DNA of 62,981 nucleotides, filler included, from Rozella allomycis CSF55 (GCA_000442015.1; 5 parts of 5 records of this genome joined end to end with filler, not necessarily neighbours in it); one strand, 5' to 3'; shown: positions 20,576 to 33,342, counted from the first letter of the whole stretch. Numbers and translations are program-made. Notes: a model not told the origin generated them from the letters alone.

Positions 20576-22489
20576 CACAGCAACTGAAAAAGAAGGCAAA
20601 TAGTCACCACCGAGATCGATGATATAGGTGGCCGCTGTGTTTATGTTCACGTCTTCGTGCGAATACAAAAAATGTATACTTGTGTTCTCATTCGCGTAAT
20701 GACAAGCCGGCATGTGGAAGATAGCCTAGAAAAGAATGGAATACTACTTTTTGAAATTTTAACATCCATCATTTGATCTTTAACATCCATCATTTGATCT
20801 TTAATAACAGTTACAGTAATTATGCTTCCTTTAAAAACCTTAAGCCTCGTTTCATGTTCAAGTGTCAAAATTGCGCCTAAAGGAAAATTTTCTGCAAAAT
20901 GGTTGGATTACGACGTGTCGTAGTCGGAATGTACAGCCTGTTCTGGACAGTTACGTTCGGACTTGGGGGCAACAAAATCGCCAACAGAATAGTTTCACCC
21001 ACATAATCTCTTGCAATTTCGTTTATTTTGTCTTCAAATGCTCCTCCTAAATCCTTTTTAGCTTGCTTTCGTAGAGAATTAATATTTTTCCGAAAACGTT
21101 TGCTATTCAAAGCAAAAGCATCATTTTTATCCTGAAAAATGCTCTCATAGGAATTTTCTGAAGACTGTCATTGATTTAAAATGTCACAACTATTCACTCC
21201 ATAACTTTTCACAATCGATGCAGATAGACGAACAAATACCTGACGTTAATAGCGATTGATGACATTTCTTTGTTCCGGGGTTTCAGACAGCAGAAGTTAT
21301 TTGTAGACATGTTGACTGATACTGGCGTTCTGTTTACGTGAATTCTTACCATAGGCCTGTTTTGTTTCTAGATGTTTTGTAATCTTTAATCTATGTCTCA
21401 AATATTCGCGATTTGTGGCACCCTTTTTCTTATCTTTGTCATCATTAACTACCATTTTCAACAGTAAAACCTAAACAGATTATGAGAACAAAATTTTTGA
21501 GCATGTTTAATTATTAGCTTTCCTTACATTGGTTTGAGTTGTATTGCAAAAAGTGTTTGGTAGTAAAGTTGAAAAAAATGGACAGGGGGGACACCTGTAG
21601 TAAGGTCACAACTTATAAGTGCAGGAGCAAAAAAATATATTAATTGACATGTGAGATTAACTTTTCTGATAGTGGTTTGTGGTGGATTTGCAAAAAGTGA
21701 TTGGTAGTAAAGTGGAAATGGGTGAGGGACCCCTGTAGTAAGGTCACAATTGATAAGTCTCAGGATTGTACATTATATAAGCATTTTAGAATTTGTAAAT
21801 TTTTGTTTCGATGCGTCATTTAAGTAATTGATTTCTCCGTCGCATATTACGGGTGAGGAGTCTTGACGGATCCCAGGCCGTATTGTCAAGTACCTTTGCA
21901 TGATNAGGAGAATGAACACACTTTGGCATTTAAATTTTCCTAGCGCGATTTCAGCATCGATAATATTGGCACCCAGGCCACGCATTATTAGCCGGGTGCC
22001 GTTACATACACTTGAGACGGATCTAAATTACATAACAAAATTATTGGTATGCCTATTTTAAGAACTAATTTGTGGGCGGGTAAGCCATTGACAGTAAGNC
22101 ACTTTTAATGGATTTTCATTGCTGAAATTGAGAACTGATATGTCGTTCATAGATCTTGCACGCGAAAAAGCCACATAAAGTTGTCCATGAGTAAACACAG
22201 GACCAGGTAAAAAAAGATGCCTACCTTTTTCAACGTCTGACCCTGCGCTTTTTTATGGTCATGGCAAAGCACAATCTGACAGTAAATTGCTTTCTTCGTA
22301 ATACAAATGGTAAAGTAGTTTGTAAGGGACCACAATGCGGGGGTTACACACTCTATGGCCTTTAAATTTGCCACGCGCAAATTTAGCATCGATAAGATTG
22401 GCACCCAGGCCACTAATTATAGGCCGGTTGCCATTACACAACCCTTGGGACGGATCTAAATTACGTTACAAAATTATTGGCATGCCTAT
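20576..22489 (-). mobile_element. Helitron fragment (copy 1): Pif1 helicase C-terminus, internal ~130-bp tandem repeat and decayed 2OG-Fe(II) oxygenase cargo
   Basis: CNG-RPII-GLGANLIDA and KAQGQTLKKVGI helicase motifs; colinear similarity of ~20576-21900 to ~25215-26520. Confidence 0.85.
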
Positions 22490-22490
22490 N

Positions 22491-23860
22491 CATCATAGTT
22501 TGCCACTAGAACATATATCATTTCCAAAATTTCAGAAGCTTCACTCGAAATCTCCGGAAATTTGTCATTCACCATCTTGCCCTGAATACAAGTTTGACAC
22601 TTTTCATCCTCTTCAAATTTTTCTTTTCCGTCCATGCCACGAACTCTTTCACATTTATTTGTTTCTTTCAATCTTTCAGCATTGATATGTCCAAATCTCT
22701 CATGCCATATATGACACCCTTTCTGTGACATCATTGCCACTTCACTCATATTAATTTGATCAATATCCAATTCATATAGATTACGCTTACTAATTTTCTT
22801 TGCTACACCAATAAATTTATTGTAATTTTTCAAATTACAATCATTCTGTTAAAATTCCACCGAACATCCATCATTTTTTGTAAATTCTGAAATTGAAAAG
22901 AGATTTGTATTCAACTGTGGAACATGTATCAAAAATTCTGTATTTTATCCCCCTTGCCAACAGCCTTCACTAATATGGCAATAGCTGTTTCAACTTCAAC
23001 ATTATTTACTTTGGTATAATTCGTCATATGCGTACTCATAGTAGAAAAATGTGCTGAAGCACCAGAATCAACAACAAAATAATGATATAAGTTTTCTTTT
23101 ATTTTCTTGCATTGTGCCTTGTAATGTCCAGGTTTTTTGCATTGAAACAAACTATTTCATTCTTGTTTTTTCTCATAAATATCATTCAAATCGCATATCC
23201 TTAAAATCTGTTCTTGTTTCTAAACTAGTAATTATACTCATGAATTTTAATAGTAGAAAATTCAGAAGTAATATGTTTCTTATCACTGGGTGCAAAGCCA
23301 CATCACTTTCTTCCAATGTTCTTAAACCTTTTAAAATCAACAATAGATTCTTCAATAGATTTTCAAATAGGCTTGACTAAAGACTTAACTGCTTTCACTA
23401 TTGAACTTCCACTATTCTTTCCATGTGCACATTCAAGTGCTTTCCATGTTTCACCAGATGACTTTGCTCTTTTTATATGTTCAATTTGAGATTCAGACAC
23501 TAATAAAGTAATTGTTGCCAAAGCATCAAGGTAATCTTCGTTTTTTTCTTTTGTATAATTCAAATCTTTTTCACTATCATTATTTTCATTTTTCATATTC
23601 ACCTCACCATTGTTTTCTCTACTATTTTCCATAGTTTCATCACTGAATAAGCTCTTGTGTATAGTGACCACGAGGAGTAGTTTTCACTTGTAAGTTTAGC
23701 TATCGTAAGGTCCATATTATTGCCTGGGCTCATAACTTGTTAAAGTAAAGTCACAAGAAGACTGAACTGAAATCACCAGGGTAAAGAAAAATTTATTTAC
23801 CATATTTCAAATTGCGTCCTAGAGTCTTCATTACTAGTTTCCTGACTTAGGGCTCCAACA
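22491..23860 (-). mobile_element. 5' part of a Ty1/Copia LTR retrotransposon: LTR, PBS, gag, zinc knuckle, protease, GAG-pre-integrase
   Basis: gag start MDLTIAKLTSENYSSW at 23715; CFQCKKPGHYKAQC knuckle; FVVDSGASAH protease; WHERFGH...CQTCIQGK. Confidence 0.9.
23738..23860 (-). repeat. 123-bp 5' LTR (TGTT...AACA), followed by PBS AGTTATGAGCCCAGG at 23723-23737
   Basis: TG/CA inverted termini; the PBS resembles the copia-type GGTTATGGGCCCAG internal tRNA-iMet primer site and lies just before the gag ATG. Confidence 0.8.
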
Positions 23861-24779
23861 GAGTTTTAACTGTTAGTGCAGAAAAAGTCAAACTAAAACC
23901 AGTTGAATGACATAATTCTCCGACAAAAAGAGCGCCTAACGGCCGTGTAGTTAAATTTTGGTCAGATGACGAATTAGATATGTCTTTTGACAAACCATCG
24001 CGAAAGAGCAACCCGCGCCTATTGATAGCGAAATCCCGACTATCCCCCTTCCGAAGTATTATAGAATTATTGCGGACATAAATGGAGAAAGCAAAAAAAT
24101 TGCGGACATAAATGGAGAAAACAAAAAACTAGATGGCGCCGAATTCGTAAACCACTTGCGTTAATGGTTGCATACAATAATTACCTAAATGTGACGAATC
24201 CCGGCGAACGCAAATTTGAAACAACCAATACAGTCCTTCGAACATTTCATAAACTGGTTACCATCATTGACAGAGACATCAATTTAATTCACAAAGGCAA
24301 ATCTAGCTCTGATTTTTAAAAGGATGTGCAAATAATTTTTGACGAAATTGAAGAAAGATCAGACTGGACCTATAAATATATTTTGGAACTTTAAACTTCC
24401 AAAAAATATAATCAATTTTTTCAATCAAACGAATTTTTCTTACAGTCAGTATCTCGTTGATTGAATGATATTATTCGGGTGTCAAATGTCTAAGTACTGA
24501 ATTAACTTATTTGCGGATGAATCCATAGGGTAACAGGAGAGAATTACACCTGTCGTGAACACATGCATGTCTGCAAATGCTCGTATTTATCCTCTAGTCA
24601 TAAATTGTTACTATAAATTAGTATTTACTCCGTATTTGAACGACAGTCTATTAGGTAACAGGCGGGGGTCCCTCACCTTGCAGGACTATGATTCCTTAGT
24701 AGCAATTTAGTTTCACTGGCCTGTTTAACCTGATGTCAGTATTTCATACCTTTAGGATAGTATGTCTCTATTTTGCAAA

Positions 24780-25060
24780 TAATTATTTACTTGTTTGCAA
24801 AAGTTTTACCCTGGTCTTGTTGTTGTAACGGTTGCATTAATGTCGGAAGCGGGATGTCAAAGACAGGGTGTCCATGCTAATTATAGTAGGGACAGGATTG
24901 ATGAATAAGCGGACCAATTTCGACTTGCCGCAATTATGGCGTTAGAAAACAACTTTCGGGAAAGTATATTTACAGGATGTTTAAACAAAATAAACGCCAT
25001 CACCAAACAATCAATTGAAGTCCGTAACATTCCAAAAGGATTTATTCTCTTTTTTCTTGT
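24780..25060 (+). pseudogene. Third, diverged 2OG-Fe(II) oxygenase paralog, truncated at the Helitron 3' end
   Basis: VALMSEAGCQRQGVHANY...LAAIMALEN...IPKGFILFFL aligns with VELKSECNCPEQAVHSDY...LGAILALEH...IPKGSIAFFL; one in-frame TAA. Confidence 0.7.
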
Positions 25061-25061
25061 A

Positions 25062-28000
25062 CTAGCGGTTGTGCTCGCTTCGCTCGCATTGTACTATTTG
25101 TAGCAAAAAACATAGTTCATTAAAACAATTAATAGATTTATTTATATGCGCTATTGGCTGGGGTTGAGCTTGCTAGCACTGCGAGAATTATAAGCATATT
25201 CATTGTTTTCTGGGGCCACAGCAACAGAAAAAGAAGGCAAATAGTCATCTTTCTCTTCGAGATATACGTGGCCGCTGTGTTTATGTTCACGTCTCTGTGC
25301 AAACACAAAAATGTATTCTTGTGTTCTCATTCTCGTAATGACAGCCGGCATGTGGAAGATAGCCTAGAAAGAATGCAATACTACCTTTTGGAATTTTAAC
25401 CTCCATCATTTGTTCTTTTGTAACAGTAACAGTATTGATGCTTCCTTTACAAACCTTAAGCCTCGTTCCATGTTCAAGTGCCAAAATTGCGCCTAAAGGA
25501 AAATTTTCTGCAAACTGGTATGACAACGACGTGTCGTAGTCGGAATGTACAGCCTGCTCTGGACAGTTACATTCCGACTTGAGCTCTACAAAATCGCTAC
25601 CAAAAAAGTTTTCACCGACATAATCTCTTGCAATTTTGTTCATATTGTCCTTAAATGCTCTTCCCAAATCTAGTTTAGCTTGCTTTCGTGGTGAATTAAA
25701 ATTTGTCCGAAAACGTTTGTTATTCAAAGCAAAAGCATCACTTTTATGCTGAAAAATGCTCTCATAGGAATTTTCTGTAGACTGTAATTGATTTAAAATG
25801 TCAGAACTATTCACTCCATAAATTTTCACAATCGATGCAGATAGACGAAAAATACCTCACGTCAATAAAGATTTATGACATTTTTTTTGTTCCGGGGTTT
25901 CAGAGAGCATAAGTCGTTTATAGACATGTTGACTAATACTGGCGTTCTTTTTACGTAAATTCTTATCATAGGTCTGTTTGTTTCTAGATGTTTAGTAATC
26001 TTTAATCTTTGTCTCAAATAATCGCGATTTTTGGCACGTTATTCTTCTCTTTGTCGTCAGTTACTATCATTTTGCAACCAGGGTATGACGACTGTAAAAT
26101 CTAAATAGATTATGAGAACAATATTTTTGAGTATTATTAACTTTCCTGATAGTGGCGTCTGGTTTTTTTGCAAACTCATTGACAGTAAAAATGAGATAGG
26201 GGGTCACCTGTAGTAAGGTCACAACTGTAAAGTGCAGAAGCGAAAAATATATTAATTGACTTGTGCAATGAACGTTCCTGATAGTGGTTTGCAGCGGATT
26301 TGTAAAAAGTGTTTGGTATTAAAGTTGAGATGGATAGGGGGGACAGCTGTAGTAAGGTCACACCTGATAATTCTCAGGATTGGATACACAATATTAGTCT
26401 TTTTAAAATTTGTTTATTTGAGTTTTGATGGGTCATTTACGTGATTGATTTTGCCGTCACATATCATGGGGGAGGAGTCTTGACGGATCCCGGGCCGTAT
26501 TGTCAAGTACCTTTACATGATATGCTATGTCAAAATCTCACGATAAACAACGTTTTTGACTTGTGATGGATTTTGATTGCTGTAATTGAGGACTGAATCA
26601 TAGATCTTGCACGCGATAAAGCCACATTGTCCATGAGTGAACACAGGACCTGGTAAAAAGATGGCTACCTTTTTTAACGTTTGACCCTGCGCTTTGTTTA
26701 TAGTCATGGCAAAGCACAATCTGACAGGAAATTGCTTTCTTCGTAATACAAATGGTAAGGTAGTTTGTGAGGGGCTTAACACAATGAGGAGAATGAACAC
26801 ACTTTGGCATTTAAATTTTCCTAGCGCGATTTCAGCATCGATAATATTGGCACCCAGGCCACGCATTATTAGCCGGGTGCCGTTACATACACTTGAGACG
26901 GATCTAAATTACATAACAAAATTATTGGTATGCCTATTTTAAGAACTAATTTGTGGGCGGGTAAGCCATTGACAGTAAGCGTGTACATAAATTCAGTGGG
27001 AAACAATCTGGCTTCTTCTTCATCTTCGACGCTATCAGGNGTCTTCATCTTCGACGCTATCAGCACTATAATATGTCTTTGCAAAACCCTTGAATTAACT
27101 CACCTATTTTATGGTTTATTAAATCAACATCCCAATTGTTCGGCGTTAAAATAGCACGTTCTGTAAGATTCCGTATTCGATAGATTTTGATGTAAGTCGG
27201 GAACGACAGTTGTCCATGTTGTTGTTCTCAATGACAATTTTTCGTGGTAGCATCATTAGANTTTAAGAACAAATTTGTGGGAGCATCATTAGATTCTCGG
27301 CAATGTTAAAAAGTTTTCCTTCTCCGATTCCTATTAGGTAGTTTGTAAAGTCAATGTTCAGAGCCCTATTGTTAGATGTTAGATGAAAGCGATAAAATTG
27401 TGGCCAAATATATTAGTGTTGCAATGTTGCCGCTAAAATATCATGTCTGCTACCTCTTAGTACGACGGGCAATATTTGACGAAAATNGTGTTGCCGCTAC
27501 AATATCGTGTTTGCTACCTCTCAGTACGACGGGTAATATTTGACGAAAATCTCCCCCAAACAGAACAGGCACACCGCCAAACAATTCATTGCAATTGCGC
27601 ACATCCCGTAAACCAATGGAATATCGACGACATATCCCAGACAATAAGAGACGTAGTTCTGAAAAGGTCCACTAACTGACCTTGTACTGGTATGTTGCAT
27701 GTAGCATGAGCATCTAATGTCAAAGGANTTACGGTCTCAATGGCATATCGATGACACATAGGTATTTCGGCCCAGACAAAAAAAGACGTACTTCTCAAAA
27801 TGTCCGGTAACCGGCCTTGCACTGGTATGTTGCATGTAGCATGAGCATTTAATGTTAAAGGAATTTTGAATTGATAATGAGCTGTGCGTCCCCCTTGCAA
27901 CAAATACGCCGCGATACCGCTGAATGCCACAGCTAGAACGATCTTACCCTTACTTCTAAGATAAGCCAGAATGGAGATGGATAGGGGGACACCTGTAGNG

Positions 28001-29630
28001 CAAAATATTTTCTAACGATTCTAAGTCCTGAAATGTAACTAATTGACTATCTTCTAAGTGCACCGGTAAGCGATATATTGCATGAGAATGGCCATGTNGA
28101 CTAACTTACCTTTACTTCTAAGATACGCTAGAATGACCGTGTACAGGAATGTTTTGCAAGAGCCACCTGGGCTATCCACTAAACAACTCTTCTGATCGCC
28201 ACCGTTAAACACTACATTAGTTACATTGTCAAACACGGCTTGTTGCTTTGCGTCCAATTGCTCGATATTTGGCAACCCTGCATCTATTTCTTTTGCCGAA
28301 TAATTCAATTCATCGGCGATCAAGTTATTGTCATTAAAGGCATCATCTGTATTTTCATCGGCATGATCGTCATATATATGTGGGAGAGCTGGAATTGTAT
28401 GATAGAGATTACCTTGAAAACTAAGTAGTTCACGAATAGCTATGGCTGCTTTGTTGTACCTTTCAATGTCCGGCAAGTTGTCAAAATCTTCTGAAAGGNT
28501 TACTGAGATCCACCGGCAACCCACCGCAGCCTGTATGTTACGTCCCATGGCCACCCAAGGTGGAAGACTCCCAGGGTGAGTTTAAATATAGATCGAGAGT
28601 TTTACAAATGANTGTCAGTATGGTAACAACTTTTGATGTACGTGGTGGGAATGGTTTGGGATAAGCTTTGGTACATGTGGGTGGTCTGTGTGGATCTGTT
28701 TGACTCATGCATGGAGATCTGACCGCAAATGCCATGAACCATTTGAGTCGCAACTAAATCATACAACTCCGGTTGGATTTCCCTGAAAGGCTGTAACAAG
28801 TTTATCAAAGTCAATTGGGTCGCATGGTTTGGATGATTCATCTAAAGTATGTAAAATGTGAGCATGCGGTACGGTAACACTCTCTTTTGACATTCCACAA
28901 CATACATAAAGGCAATGACTTTTCCAAACATATTGTTTTTTGTGAGGTCCTGAATGATCAATTGAAGTTTTTGGTTAAATACAAGGGCGCCAATGTCAGG
29001 GCGATCTTGCGCTGTCTTGTTTAACATTAGGTTGTTCTTAATTTCAGGCCAGGCAGGGGTATAAGTGACAGTGATAACCAAATCTGGCTTTCCAAACTCA
29101 AGTACTATTGCCATTGAATCCTGGTATGATTGCAGCAAGCTCTAGGACCTGCGGTAAAGCTTGATGGTATACGTTCATTATGATTCGGAAAAGCATCCTG
29201 AAGGCCTTGGTAAAGTTCAGATCATATTTCGCGCTGATGAGTTCTAAAATAGTTTAATCGTCATGTTTCAATTTTGGAGTATTTATCAACAATATATTGT
29301 TGGAAAAGTTTTCGAATGGGATGATTTCTGCGGCCTTCAGTACAAAGATGTAAATAAAACGATGTCCATTGAAGTGTCGTTACACGTCGGCCTCTTGTAT
29401 TCATAAAATTGGGTGTCCATCACTATGCGGAAACAAAAGATGATATTGTAAAGGGTCGTAGTGCCTACTCAACTCGGACATTTCTTTCAAACTGTTATCA
29501 CGATGTCTAAAAATACTTTCACCCCTGTTTGTTACATTCTCCTTATCATTTATTAAAACGGCAACATCATCAGAAGTAGGTAGATTATATATGCTATAAA
29601 TCCAATCCGTTGACTCTACGAACATGCCAT
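25062..29630 (-). mobile_element. Helitron (copy 2): decayed Rep-helicase, internal repeats, oxygenase cargo and an intact-looking 3' terminus
   Basis: YNLPTSDDVAV, YDPLQYHLLFP, YQDSMAIV..FGKPDL.IT, VVECQKR-LP, DSPGGSCKTF, GGRTAH, FGGDFRQILPV, RRKQFPVRLCFAMTINKAQGQT; 3' end GCGAGCGAAGCGAGC-ACAACCG-CTAG|T at 25062. Confidence 0.93.
25287..25829 (-). CDS. 2OG-Fe(II) dioxygenase-like (double-stranded beta-helix, PhyH-like) Helitron cargo; probable frameshifts at both ends
   Basis: HxD motif QAVHSDY, distal His in GYLPHAG and terminal Arg in NTRIH; lies between the helicase stop and the Helitron 3' CTAG. Confidence 0.7.
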   Translation of the reverse strand: MKIYGVNSSDILNQLQSTENSYESIFQHKSDAFALNNKRFRTNFNSPRKQAKLDLGRAFKDNMNKIARDYVGENFFGSDFVELKSECNCPEQAVHSDYDTSLSYQFAENFPLGAILALEHGTRLKVCKGSINTVTVTKEQMMEVKIPKGSIAFFLGYLPHAGCHYENENTRIHFCVCTET

Positions 29631-30664: not shown

Positions 30665-31985
30665 TTATTCAAAATTTTTGGATGAAAAAGATGTTGACGA
30701 ATGGAAAAAAGGGTGAGATATACTCGCCAACGCAGATATTCGCCTGGTTTGATTATAGTTTAGCAATTGTTTAATCAAATCAAGAAAATGGTATTCAAAT
30801 TTTATCTTTGGGTTTATAAGTTCCTTTGTTATCTTCTTGACTCTTAACCCTTACTTGAATCGTCTTTGCATTGTTTACGTATTTTTCTTCAACATTTTTT
30901 GAGGCAGATCTATTAACCTTGTATTTTTTAGTAAAGAAATTCTTAAATGAAGATTGATCCACGCATTCTATCATCTCTTTTGGAAATGGGCCAAGAATTT
31001 TCTCCATTAGTGCCAGATGTTCTACATCGTCATGTGTCTTGAACAACAATTTTCCAGTAAATAATTCAACTGAAATACAACCAACAGCCCAGATATCACA
31101 CGCAAATGTCCATCCAAGCTCTTTTTATCTAAATAAAGTTGTTTTACTAAGAATAACTTCGGGAGGTCTATAGTAGCGAGTGGATACGATGCTTTGATAA
31201 TTGTGTTGACTGTTGTACACCGCAGTCCCAAAATCTATTAGTACTATCTTGGTATTGTTCATTAATCTGTAATGGCCGAGTGTCTTGAAAAAAAATGGAA
31301 GGTTATATTTACTGATGAGTTTTGCTCAACGGTGAATTGATCATGTACAAAAAGAATGTTTTCTGGCTTTATATCGGTATGTATTATATTTAATGAGTGT
31401 ATAAATGCAATGGCTTTCAATAGTTGTTGGCATATACTTTGGATCTGAAATAGAGGATACGGCTGGTAGGAATTTAATCTAAGGAATTCGAATAGACTTG
31501 GGCCATAAATAGGGAAAAGCATGCATACATGGTTTCCAAGGTTGAAGTCCTGCAAAAGTGTTATGCACCCCCTTGTAAATTATCTGATGGAATAATTACT
31601 GAGTCCCTTCAACATCATGATACCGTAGAACTTTTAGAATATCAAGTTCACTTTCAGCGGATCTTTTATATTTGTCTATTCCTTTTATGACTTTCAAGGC
31701 CAATTTTTCTAATGTGGCAATTTCCTCAACTCTAAATACCTCACCGTACATTCCTTTTCCAATAATATCTTTAATTTTATCTATACATGATTGAATATTA
31801 ATTTTACATTTTGCATAAATAACGTCATCTATTTTCAAAATACAATAACCATCTGCGGTCATAGACATTCTGGACAAGGCCTTATAAACAATAAGTTTTC
31901 AAGTTACTTTTCCAGCTGAGCAGGAAAGATTTAGATTATTCCTTTGTTGGCTATTTCCAACGCGCGGTGCGGTAGATACGGACAT
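30665..31985 (-). CDS. KNS1: LAMMER/CLK dual-specificity kinase, multi-exon
   Basis: IGKGMYGEV, ALKVIK, HTDIKPEN, IDFG, EHLALMEKILGPFP (LAMMER motif). Confidence 0.85.
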
Positions 31986-32182
31986 TAACCGCAAACTGGA
32001 AAAATCAAAACAAAAAATAAGTAACGTGAAATCGAATAATGGGAATAGAAAAGTAATAAATCAAAATGTTATGCACGGCAGACAGAATTTCAAATTCATA
32101 CCCATAATAACAATTCAGCCATAAGTCAAAGTCTACAAGAAAGTCTTTATTGAAGGAAATGAGTTCTTTTTGCTTAAAACNA

Positions 32183-32770
32183 TGTATAAACGCAATGGCT
32201 TTCAATAGTTGTTGGGTTATACTTTGGATCTGAAATAAAGGATATGGCTGGTAGGAATTTAATCTAAGGAATTCGAACAGACTTGGGCCGTAAATAGGGA
32301 AAAGCATGCATACATGGTTTCCAAGGTTGAAGTCCTGTAAAAGTGTTATGCACCCCCTTGTAAATTATCTGATGGATTAATTACTGAGTCCCTTCAATAT
32401 CATGATACCGTAGAACTTTTAGAATATCAAGTTCAGTTTCTGCGGATCTTTTATATTTGTCTATGCCTTTTATGACTTTCAAGGCCAGTTTTTCTGATGT
32501 GGCAATCTCCTCAACTCTAAATACCTCTCCATACATTCCTTTTCCAATGATATCTTTAATTTTATCTGTACATGATTGAATATTAACTTTACATTTTGCA
32601 TAAATAACGTCATCTATTTTCAAAATACAATAACCATCTGCGGTCATAGACATTCTGGACAAGGCCTTATAAGCAATAAGTTTTCAAATTACTTTTCCAG
32701 CTGAAAAGGAAAGATTTAGATTATTCTTTTGTTGGCTAGTGCCAGCGCGCGGTGCGGTAGATACGGACAT
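32183..32770 (-). pseudogene. Partial tandem duplicate of the LAMMER kinase 5' half, ending at the N gap at 32182
   Basis: Near-identical ORFs 32381-32662 versus 31596-31877 with scattered substitutions. Confidence 0.7.
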
Positions 32771-33342
32771 TAACCGCAAACCGGAAAAATCAAAACAAAA
32801 AATGTGTAAAGGAAATCGAAAGCTCGGAATAAAAAGTAATAAATAAAAATGTTATGTAATATGTAGACAGAATTTTATACACATAAAAACAATTCAGCAA
32901 TTAGTCAACGTCTACAAGAAAGTCTTTATTGAAGGAAATGAGTTCTTTTTGCTTAAAACAACCATACTTTTTTCATGTGATATATATCCACGAATGAATC
33001 CCTTTGTTAAGAATGGAAGGTATCATACATTATTTATCATGGTTGCAATTTTACATTCTATAGAATCTAAATCAGCAGCAGGTATGTTTAATTGTCGCAG
33101 AATGAAAACAATCGACTTTATTGGAAGGCGGTATTCCATATTCGTGCTTTTAGATATTACTATGTATCTATATCAATTATCAATTATGATTACATTTTCT
33201 TAAATAAATTTCGATACAGAATATCTTTCATTTGCATTTGAANNNNNNNNNNNNNNNNNNNNNNNNNNNNNNNNNNNNNNNNNNNNTTAATTAATTAANN
33301 NNNNNNNNNNNNNNNNNNNNNNNNNNNNNNNNNNNNNNNNNN

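Follow-up and report, generated by a model that had tools for sequence, protein, structure and literature searches.

A predicted PhyH-like Fe(II)/2-oxoglutarate dioxygenase gene between the helicase and the 3' terminus of a Helitron1 family in Rozella allomycis, with a relative on a Mutator-like element

A Helitron1 family of Rozella allomycis CSF55 very probably carries, as cargo, a gene for a predicted PhyH-like 2-oxoglutarate (2OG)-Fe(II) dioxygenase. The gene's family also rides a Mutator-like element, as shown, with assembly caveats, for one element bounded by a target-site duplication (TSD). The window is the whole stretch of DNA analysed, 62,981 nucleotides in length. Its first 29,999 bases represent contig C625 of an 11.86-Mb assembly that consists of 1,059 contigs and contains numerous single-N joins. 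The nearest named proteins, with 67-100% identity over the parts that match, are annotated as hypothetical proteins of Rozella allomycis. The features discussed here are as follows.

20575-22489, minus strand: second, older copy of the family, with the helicase end, the repeat and a broken cargo but no 3' terminus (82.7-83.5% DNA identity)
24759-25057, plus strand: older decayed paralog of the dioxygenase family (41% protein match; HMM match at 24759-25055)
25062-25089, minus strand: 3' terminus of the Helitron1, with the palindrome-like motif GCGAGCGAAGCGAGC followed by CTAG, inserted before a T (25061)
25151-26070, minus strand: cargo, a pseudogene of the PhyH-like 2OG-Fe(II) dioxygenase (ATG at 26070, stop at 25151; aligned with C683, C543 and copy 2)
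25317-25547, minus strand: putative catalytic codons in P0001 numbering, His176 at 25547-25545 (H-x-Asp178), His241 at 25352-25350 and Arg252 at 25319-25317
26136-26370, minus strand: imperfect direct repeat with two units of ~137 bp (blastn self-match of 70.7% over 99 bp)
26525-29604, minus strand: RepHel gene, broken and 5'-truncated, with numerous stops, frameshifts and single-N assembly joins

The Helitron1 in the window is decayed and extends on the minus strand from ~29604 to 25062. Its broken RepHel gene contains both the Rep and the Pif1 helicase domains that characterise Helitron1 (HLE1), with matches above the cut-off to Helitron_like_N (PF14214) at 28872-29138 and 29174-29329 and to PIF1 (PF05970) at 27311-28260. 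Similarity to a sister copy on C229 ends at 29604, while C229 itself runs on; the 5' end of the element (A|TC in HLE1) was not found, since the window copy is truncated at ~29604 and the sister copies reach contig ends. The order of features downstream of the helicase agrees with that described in an earlier note on this DNA: the helicase frame stops at 26525, followed by the repeat (26370-26136), the cargo (26070-25151), a spacer of 89 bp with the terminus, and CTAG|T at 25062/25061. The internal tandem repeat mentioned there is the imperfect two-unit repeat, which TRF did not call; the copy on C683 has three units with 88-89% identity. CTAG occupies positions 25065-25062, and in all nine tabulated family termini the next base is a T in otherwise unrelated flanks, with seven termini ending in CTAG, one in TTAG and one in CAAG. 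These 3' ends thus also show the CTRR end and the insertion before T that are typical of HLE1. GCGAAGC is known to form a stable mini-hairpin, and the terminus had been described as containing such a hairpin. The palindrome-like motif is indeed conserved just before the CTRR sequence, but a hairpin was not predicted there by ViennaRNA, and the folding energy is no better than that of shuffled sequences (z 0.18; 106 of 200 shuffles fold equally well).

The element has inserted into the older paralog at 24759-25057, which is cut off by the 3' end of the Helitron; a copy on C861 without this interruption matches it at 82% on the DNA level. Elsewhere in the window, positions 31398-32959 consist of two tandem 785-bp segments that are 92.6% identical and represent an allele or an assembly duplication; judged from the translation, each presumably contains the first part of a gene for a CLK-like protein kinase.

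A DNA search gave 23 matches. The helicase end is held at seven loci, and four of these contain the cargo, namely the two window copies, C683 and C543. At C593 and C38 the sequence breaks off before the place of the cargo, while C229 contains the helicase end and the terminus without the cargo. The helicase end, the cargo and the terminus occur in this order at three loci (window copy 1, C683 and, across an N run, C543), and the flanks of the three loci differ. The cargo therefore travels with the element, as had been proposed, and the linkage does not reflect a segmental duplication. In C616, which has the cargo and the terminus at 74-75% identity, these are interrupted by 4.7 kb of inserted sequence with a 9-bp duplication (8/9).

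The same order of features had also been reported for the second copy in the window. The helicase end, the repeat and the cargo do recur at 20575-22489, but this copy has no Helitron terminus and instead runs into the reading frame of a Copia reverse transcriptase (GYSPASSDPCIY..YVDDLII). It is located between a Copia gag/integrase, with PF13976 at 22489-22848, and the Copia reverse transcriptase. A CTAGT sequence near 20557 was considered as an alternative Helitron end and rejected, as it is part of the coding sequence for the reverse transcriptase. Across 20575-23800, the copy replaces the middle of the Copia element, with gag/pre-integrase upstream and reverse transcriptase downstream. The segment at 21903-22098, located between two single-N joins, is 99.5% identical to 26784-26979 and was probably misassembled from copy 1.

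In the two cargo-less copies on C229 and C704, the repeat is joined directly to the last 88 bp of the element. They share the junction, which connects 26217/26218 to 25148, just past the stop codon of the cargo. A shared deletion seems to us the likelier origin, since a repeat unit is cut at the junction and the gene is present in the more diverged copies. Since the two copies have this junction in common, the cargo is dispensable for at least some of the spread of the element.

The window copy of the cargo gene is dead: compared with the copy on C683, it is interrupted by a stop at codon 72 and lacks a single base at three positions. On C683, the frame stays open over 270 codons until an N join is reached, and the cargo of copy 2 (ATG at 21455) has stops at codons 53, 96 and 183, several frameshifts and a 21-bp duplication. 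The HxD...H...R motifs noticed earlier (QAVHSDY, LPHAG and NTRIH) are all located in an open stretch of 189 codons in copy 1 (25856-25287). An intact relative of 309 amino acids, P0001, is 92% identical to the window cargo. The dN/dS values among the close copies range from 0.91 to 1.65 with wide intervals, 0.91 and 0.98 among them, and those against copy 2 from 0.51 to 0.70 with intervals that extend to ~1 or beyond (to 0.99-1.26 for the values of 0.61-0.70). The recent Helitron copies have decayed neutrally after insertion, and earlier constraint is signalled at most weakly.

Protein searches of the assembly gave 23 matches in one case and 19 in the other, spread over a total of 17 contigs; they belong to subfamilies with 27-48% identity. 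One subfamily (C656, C162, C762 and a stub on C639) is located ~190 bp inside a conserved end, ...TTAGCC. This end and a partner end that starts with GGGTAG flank perfect 9-bp duplications (9/9) at C704 and C806. Such ends also bound C656:378-15741, where the 9-bp duplication matches at 8/9 positions. MULE (PF10551, E 1e-12) and SWIM (PF04434, E 4.9e-8) domains are found right after the left end of this element, and the dioxygenase paralog is placed just inside its right end, co-oriented with the transposase. The DDE transposase with its SWIM finger and the target duplication of ~9 bp place the carrier among the Mutator/MULE elements, and long terminal inverted repeats were not seen on it. With eight single-N joins and nested elements in the interval, it is the target duplication that supports its continuity. 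For the remaining subfamilies, the matches on the 17 contigs did not reveal a carrier element.

Within the MULE-borne subfamily, the comparison of C656 with C762 gave a pS of 0.65, a pN of 0.19 and a ratio of 0.29 (CI 0.18-0.46, 78 codons), and that of C656 with C162 a pN/pS of 0.53 (0.34-0.85). Between subfamilies, dS is at least 1.2 or saturated and dN is 0.43-0.76, values that are biased by the protein-guided codon alignment, which lowers pN/pS at saturation. These codon comparisons show, with moderate strength, that the older lineages have been under purifying selection. The dN/dS check called for in the earlier note thus revealed neutral decay in the close copies but not in the older lineages.

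The gene may of course be a passive passenger, that is, a host-serving or virus-derived gene that was captured by end bypass, is useless to the elements and owes its conservation to a time before capture. Neutral decay of the close copies and the existence of cargo-less derivatives are as expected from such a passenger, the paralogs are often found in nested repeat clusters, into one of which the window copy has inserted, and gene capture is common in Helitrons according to the sections consulted of the HELIANO study (PMC11417382). However, copies of the MULE-borne subfamily that have an element end in common show purifying selection, and no single-copy, intron-bearing host paralog was seen among the protein matches in the genome. 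The gene also has the same terminal, co-oriented place in two unrelated element classes, which counts against passive hitchhiking, and we consider the passenger explanation unlikely. Carriage by two classes instead points to an enzyme retained by mobile elements for their own use.

Several other arrangements were observed around the paralogs. Inside the C656 element, the segment 5436-10380 (L106:5857-7969, L046:2-807) contains virus- or Polinton-like pieces of a C962R-like AEP primase and a superfamily-3 helicase (PF23162, PF00519), as well as part of a hAT element and another MULE that has inverted repeats of its own. At C806:94099-95499 (L043:5600-7000), a paralog directly follows a helicase fragment that is 96% identical to an HLE2-type gene on C601, with a single N between them, and HLE2 as a third carrier class is only suggestive. 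A downstream motif tried as proof of this link failed, as it recurs at 11 places and, like the end of an LTR, begins with TGTCA. At C1019:245-1976 (L214), a paralog from another subfamily is truncated and abuts tandem repeats that match C694:8112-9700, where they stand upstream of a separate Pif1 gene. Finally, C639:35204-36010 (L048:5699-6511; C639a) contains an open paralog of 265 amino acids that lacks the 2OG-binding arginine and nearby conserved residues and, going by these residues, is possibly a catalytically dead, domesticated copy.

A HMMER search of 1.84 billion representative sequences gave 271 matches at E<=0.001, 150 of which were listed, and 123 sequences were aligned (A1), with most fragments and long proteins left out. 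H176, D178, H241 and H254 are invariant in A1. In the set of 159 domains used for the trees, H176 and D178 are present in all 159, and H241, R252 and H254 in 157. The metal triad is kept in eight of the nine genome-labelled paralogs, and the ninth is a fragment. PhyH (PF05721) is matched, weakly, by 50 of the 123 A1 members at E<=0.01 (best 3e-7), while P0001 itself has no PhyH match at E<=10 and no Pfam match. Searched against the PDB, the A1 profile gave 31 matches at E<=0.1, among them SptF, AndA, FtmOx1 and OkaE.

The AlphaFold2 model of P0001 (pLDDT 87.7, pTM 0.81) has an N-terminal helix at residues 5-42, followed by a double-stranded β-helix (DSBH) core. The best structural matches in VIA are PhyH-like chains, with TlxI and AsqJ at the top (Z 15.2; rmsd 3.0 and 3.7 over 181 and 194 residues), followed by prolyl hydroxylases (Z 13.3-13.7) and AlkB chains (Z 10.2-11.1), and the Foldseek matches of the model agree with those in VIA. 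The case of a missing DSBH fold, named earlier as a reason to give up the dioxygenase reading, thus did not arise. The predicted fold, the HxD...H triad, intact in the best copies, and the 2OG-binding arginine support the assignment to the 2OG-Fe(II) superfamily, and, on the strength of the model, P0001 is a PhyH-like DSBH 2OG-Fe(II) enzyme (H176-D178-H241, R252), not a PhyH orthologue. It shares the DSBH, the HxD...H motif and the single 2OG arginine with PhyH-like oxygenases (PF05721; TlxI/J, AsqJ, AndA, FtmOx1, EctD and PHYH). However, the P0001 family differs from the solved enzymes of this group, with which identity is 10-18%, by an additional invariant His254, a conserved R-x-Q and Cys, a long basic N-terminal helix (19 K+R in the first 60 residues of P0001; pI 9.4) and, on the Rozella side, a mobile-element context.

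The earlier note had drawn an analogy to the TET/JBP enzymes of other fungal transposons. An enzyme similar to TET/JBP or AlkB could oxidise methylated bases (5mC or 6mA) in the DNA of the element and so undo methylation-based silencing; Helitrons expose single-stranded DNA, and the protein is basic. The placement is also the same as in the rusts and Pezizales, where Helitron1 elements carry TET/JBP genes according to Kojima 2025 (PMC12730594). At the family level, the analogy did not hold: the Tet_JBP and AlkB-type 2OG-FeII_Oxy_2 (PF13532) models matched none of the 123 A1 members at E<=0.01, neither TET nor AlkB is among the 31 PDB profile matches, and the AlkB chains score well below the PhyH-like chains in VIA. 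TET/JBP chains are absent from the 50 VIA rows listed, beyond which a further family may still be similar. The AlkB motif is RxxxxxR, and a second arginine is not found six residues past R252, where P0001 has Ser and the family consensus Asp. Membership of the cargo family in TET/JBP or AlkB is consequently not supported by the profiles.

The genome context speaks against 5mC as a target. The search for PF00145 in the assembly gave four matches at two loci (C631 and C504; L131-L133), both of which we take to be DNMT2-like by motif, and no matches other than these. C-to-T changes occur at 7 of 222 CpG positions versus 21 of 939 elsewhere, and the CpG observed/expected ratio is 0.88-0.91 in the element versus 0.82 in the window, so that CpG decay is not seen. 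Because only DNMT2-like genes were found in this incomplete assembly and because CpG decay is not seen, 5mC is an unlikely target of the enzyme, and its oxidation as an anti-silencing route, as had been suggested, finds no footing here. Base oxidation as a whole appears distinctly improbable to us.

Outside the genome, 16 IMG/VR loci encode members of the family, 10 of which are labelled GVMAG, and 80 of 99 metagenome loci were kept. The giant-virus and metagenome PhyH-like proteins belong to the same family as the cargo, being among the 271 representatives, and the Atlas clusters closest in structure come from Nucleocytoviricota. No match to the family was found in the phage records searched. 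The viral members are ~200-250 amino acids long, compared with 309 in P0001, and among the 87 of 96 selected ORFs scanned near the viral matches, the neighbours vary (rhodopsin at four loci, glycosyltransferases at four, translation factors, capsid). No methyltransferase or base-modifying neighbour was found among these 87 flanking ORFs at the 16 viral loci. In the giant-virus loci L119, L121, L123 and L127, the family gene is located directly downstream of a viral rhodopsin gene. When 13 transposon sequences were used as tblastn queries on 96 viral and metagenome loci, the only matches were to Pif1-like helicases, at three loci, and no transposase was identified by Pfam in 63 ORFs that flank the outside relatives. 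Diverged family members are also present on eight metagenome contigs that have a record prefix in common (L189-L191, L194, L196-L198 and L208), which suggests a multi-copy unit in one eukaryote; L189 and L196 share neighbour genes of no known function, and no transposase domain was found on the eight contigs.

The genome-labelled paralogs largely group together, eight of nine at 0.98 in a FastTree phylogeny of 159 domains and seven of nine at UFBoot 81 in an IQ-TREE phylogeny of 31 domains. A viral donor of the cargo was considered and not retained, as the nearest outside sequences in the trees are unnamed metagenome proteins and neither a donor nor a direction can be assigned. Among 26 longer relatives scanned, one contains SET and PHD domains, one a PHD domain (below the cut-off), one an Ulp1 domain and two C2H2 domains (weak).

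The enzyme might alternatively modify a small molecule, a lipid, a glycan or a protein prior to glycosylation, and have been spread by the elements since it is useful to the parasite in the host cell. The top structural matches are all biosynthetic oxygenases (TlxI/J, AsqJ, AndA, FtmOx1), and glycosyltransferases are found near the gene at 4 of the 16 viral loci. However, the low identity to those enzymes means that no substrate can be transferred from them, no biosynthetic cluster surrounds any of the genome copies examined, and the basic N-terminal helix and the broken state of most copies likewise speak against such a role, which we regard as quite unlikely.

We instead favour a nuclear role from which the carrier elements benefit, and the proposal in its entirety, from capture to benefit, is in our judgement evenly balanced. 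The Helitron1 family has taken up an intronless gene for a predicted PhyH-like Fe(II)/2-oxoglutarate dioxygenase and carries it between RepHel and the 3' terminus, in the same orientation, which means that it is copied in every full rolling-circle transposition. The gene's family is common to several repeat families of the genome, including, with the assembly caveats given above, the Mutator-like element, and the data show with moderate strength that the gene was kept under purifying selection in source lineages and decays once a copy has inserted. Judged from the conserved residues, the enzyme would bind Fe(II) via His176, Asp178 and His241 and 2-oxoglutarate via Arg252, and hydroxylate a C-H bond, which is the established chemistry of the superfamily. 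A nuclear substrate is favoured, on indirect evidence, because of the basic N-terminal helix and the SET, PHD and Ulp1 fusions in relatives. That the enzyme acts in the nucleus on a chromatin protein or nucleic acid and hydroxylates or oxidatively demethylates a mark other than 5mC, to the benefit of the carrier elements, falls a little short of an even chance; all the nearest solved structures act on small molecules, which goes against the proposal.

Helitrons with a 2OG oxygenase are already known in kind, and the addition made here is the PhyH-like class and its sharing between Helitron1 and MULE. The earlier note missed the Mutator-like carriage as well as the published Helitron-borne oxygenases of two other classes. 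Kojima 2025 (PMC12730594) describes the passage of TET/JBP genes among 11 lineages of fungal DNA transposons, with Helitron1 and Helitron2 among them. The Rozella cargo resembles these in that a 2OG-Fe(II) dioxygenase is found in Helitron1 and is shared by unrelated transposon superfamilies of one genome. However, the Rozella enzyme is PhyH-like and not TET/JBP by profile, and there is no sign of 5mC silencing in Rozella, which is not a member of Dikarya, unlike the hosts in that study, and is not mentioned in its main text; MuDR is outside the 11 carrier lineages given there. The other class is the AlkB-type 2OG-FeII_Oxy_2 (PF13532), captured by Helitron-like elements, almost only HLE2, in the sections consulted of the HELIANO study (PMC11417382). 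As in those elements, the oxygenase is stably carried in a separate ORF, whereas the Rozella carrier is HLE1 and the enzyme PhyH-like; PhyH is absent from the HELIANO supplementary file searched. No report of a PhyH-class cargo in a Helitron or other transposon was found in the literature searched, which lay outside most subscription journals and Repbase, and none of the sharing of such an enzyme between Helitron1 and MULE in the same literature, outside the supplement of PMC12730594. The main text of PMC13533422 contains no mention of Rozella, dioxygenase, PhyH or Helitron.

The known eukaryotic chromatin demethylases belong, to our knowledge, to the JmjC, TET/JBP and AlkB branches. The family may tentatively be seen as a third transposon-borne counter-silencing class beside TET/JBP and AlkB, namely a nuclear enzyme that hydroxylates or demethylates a chromatin protein or RNA and is passed between Helitrons and Mutator in a genome without canonical DNA cytosine methylation, an extension that we find rather doubtful. 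If mere hitchhiking accounts for the pattern, it would be a case of ordinary gene capture. The intact 309-residue P0001 makes the proposed reading directly testable, and if it is true, the retention of a PhyH-branch enzyme with many giant-virus relatives in two unrelated classes of transposon would indicate that a route of modification or silencing has so far gone unrecognised.
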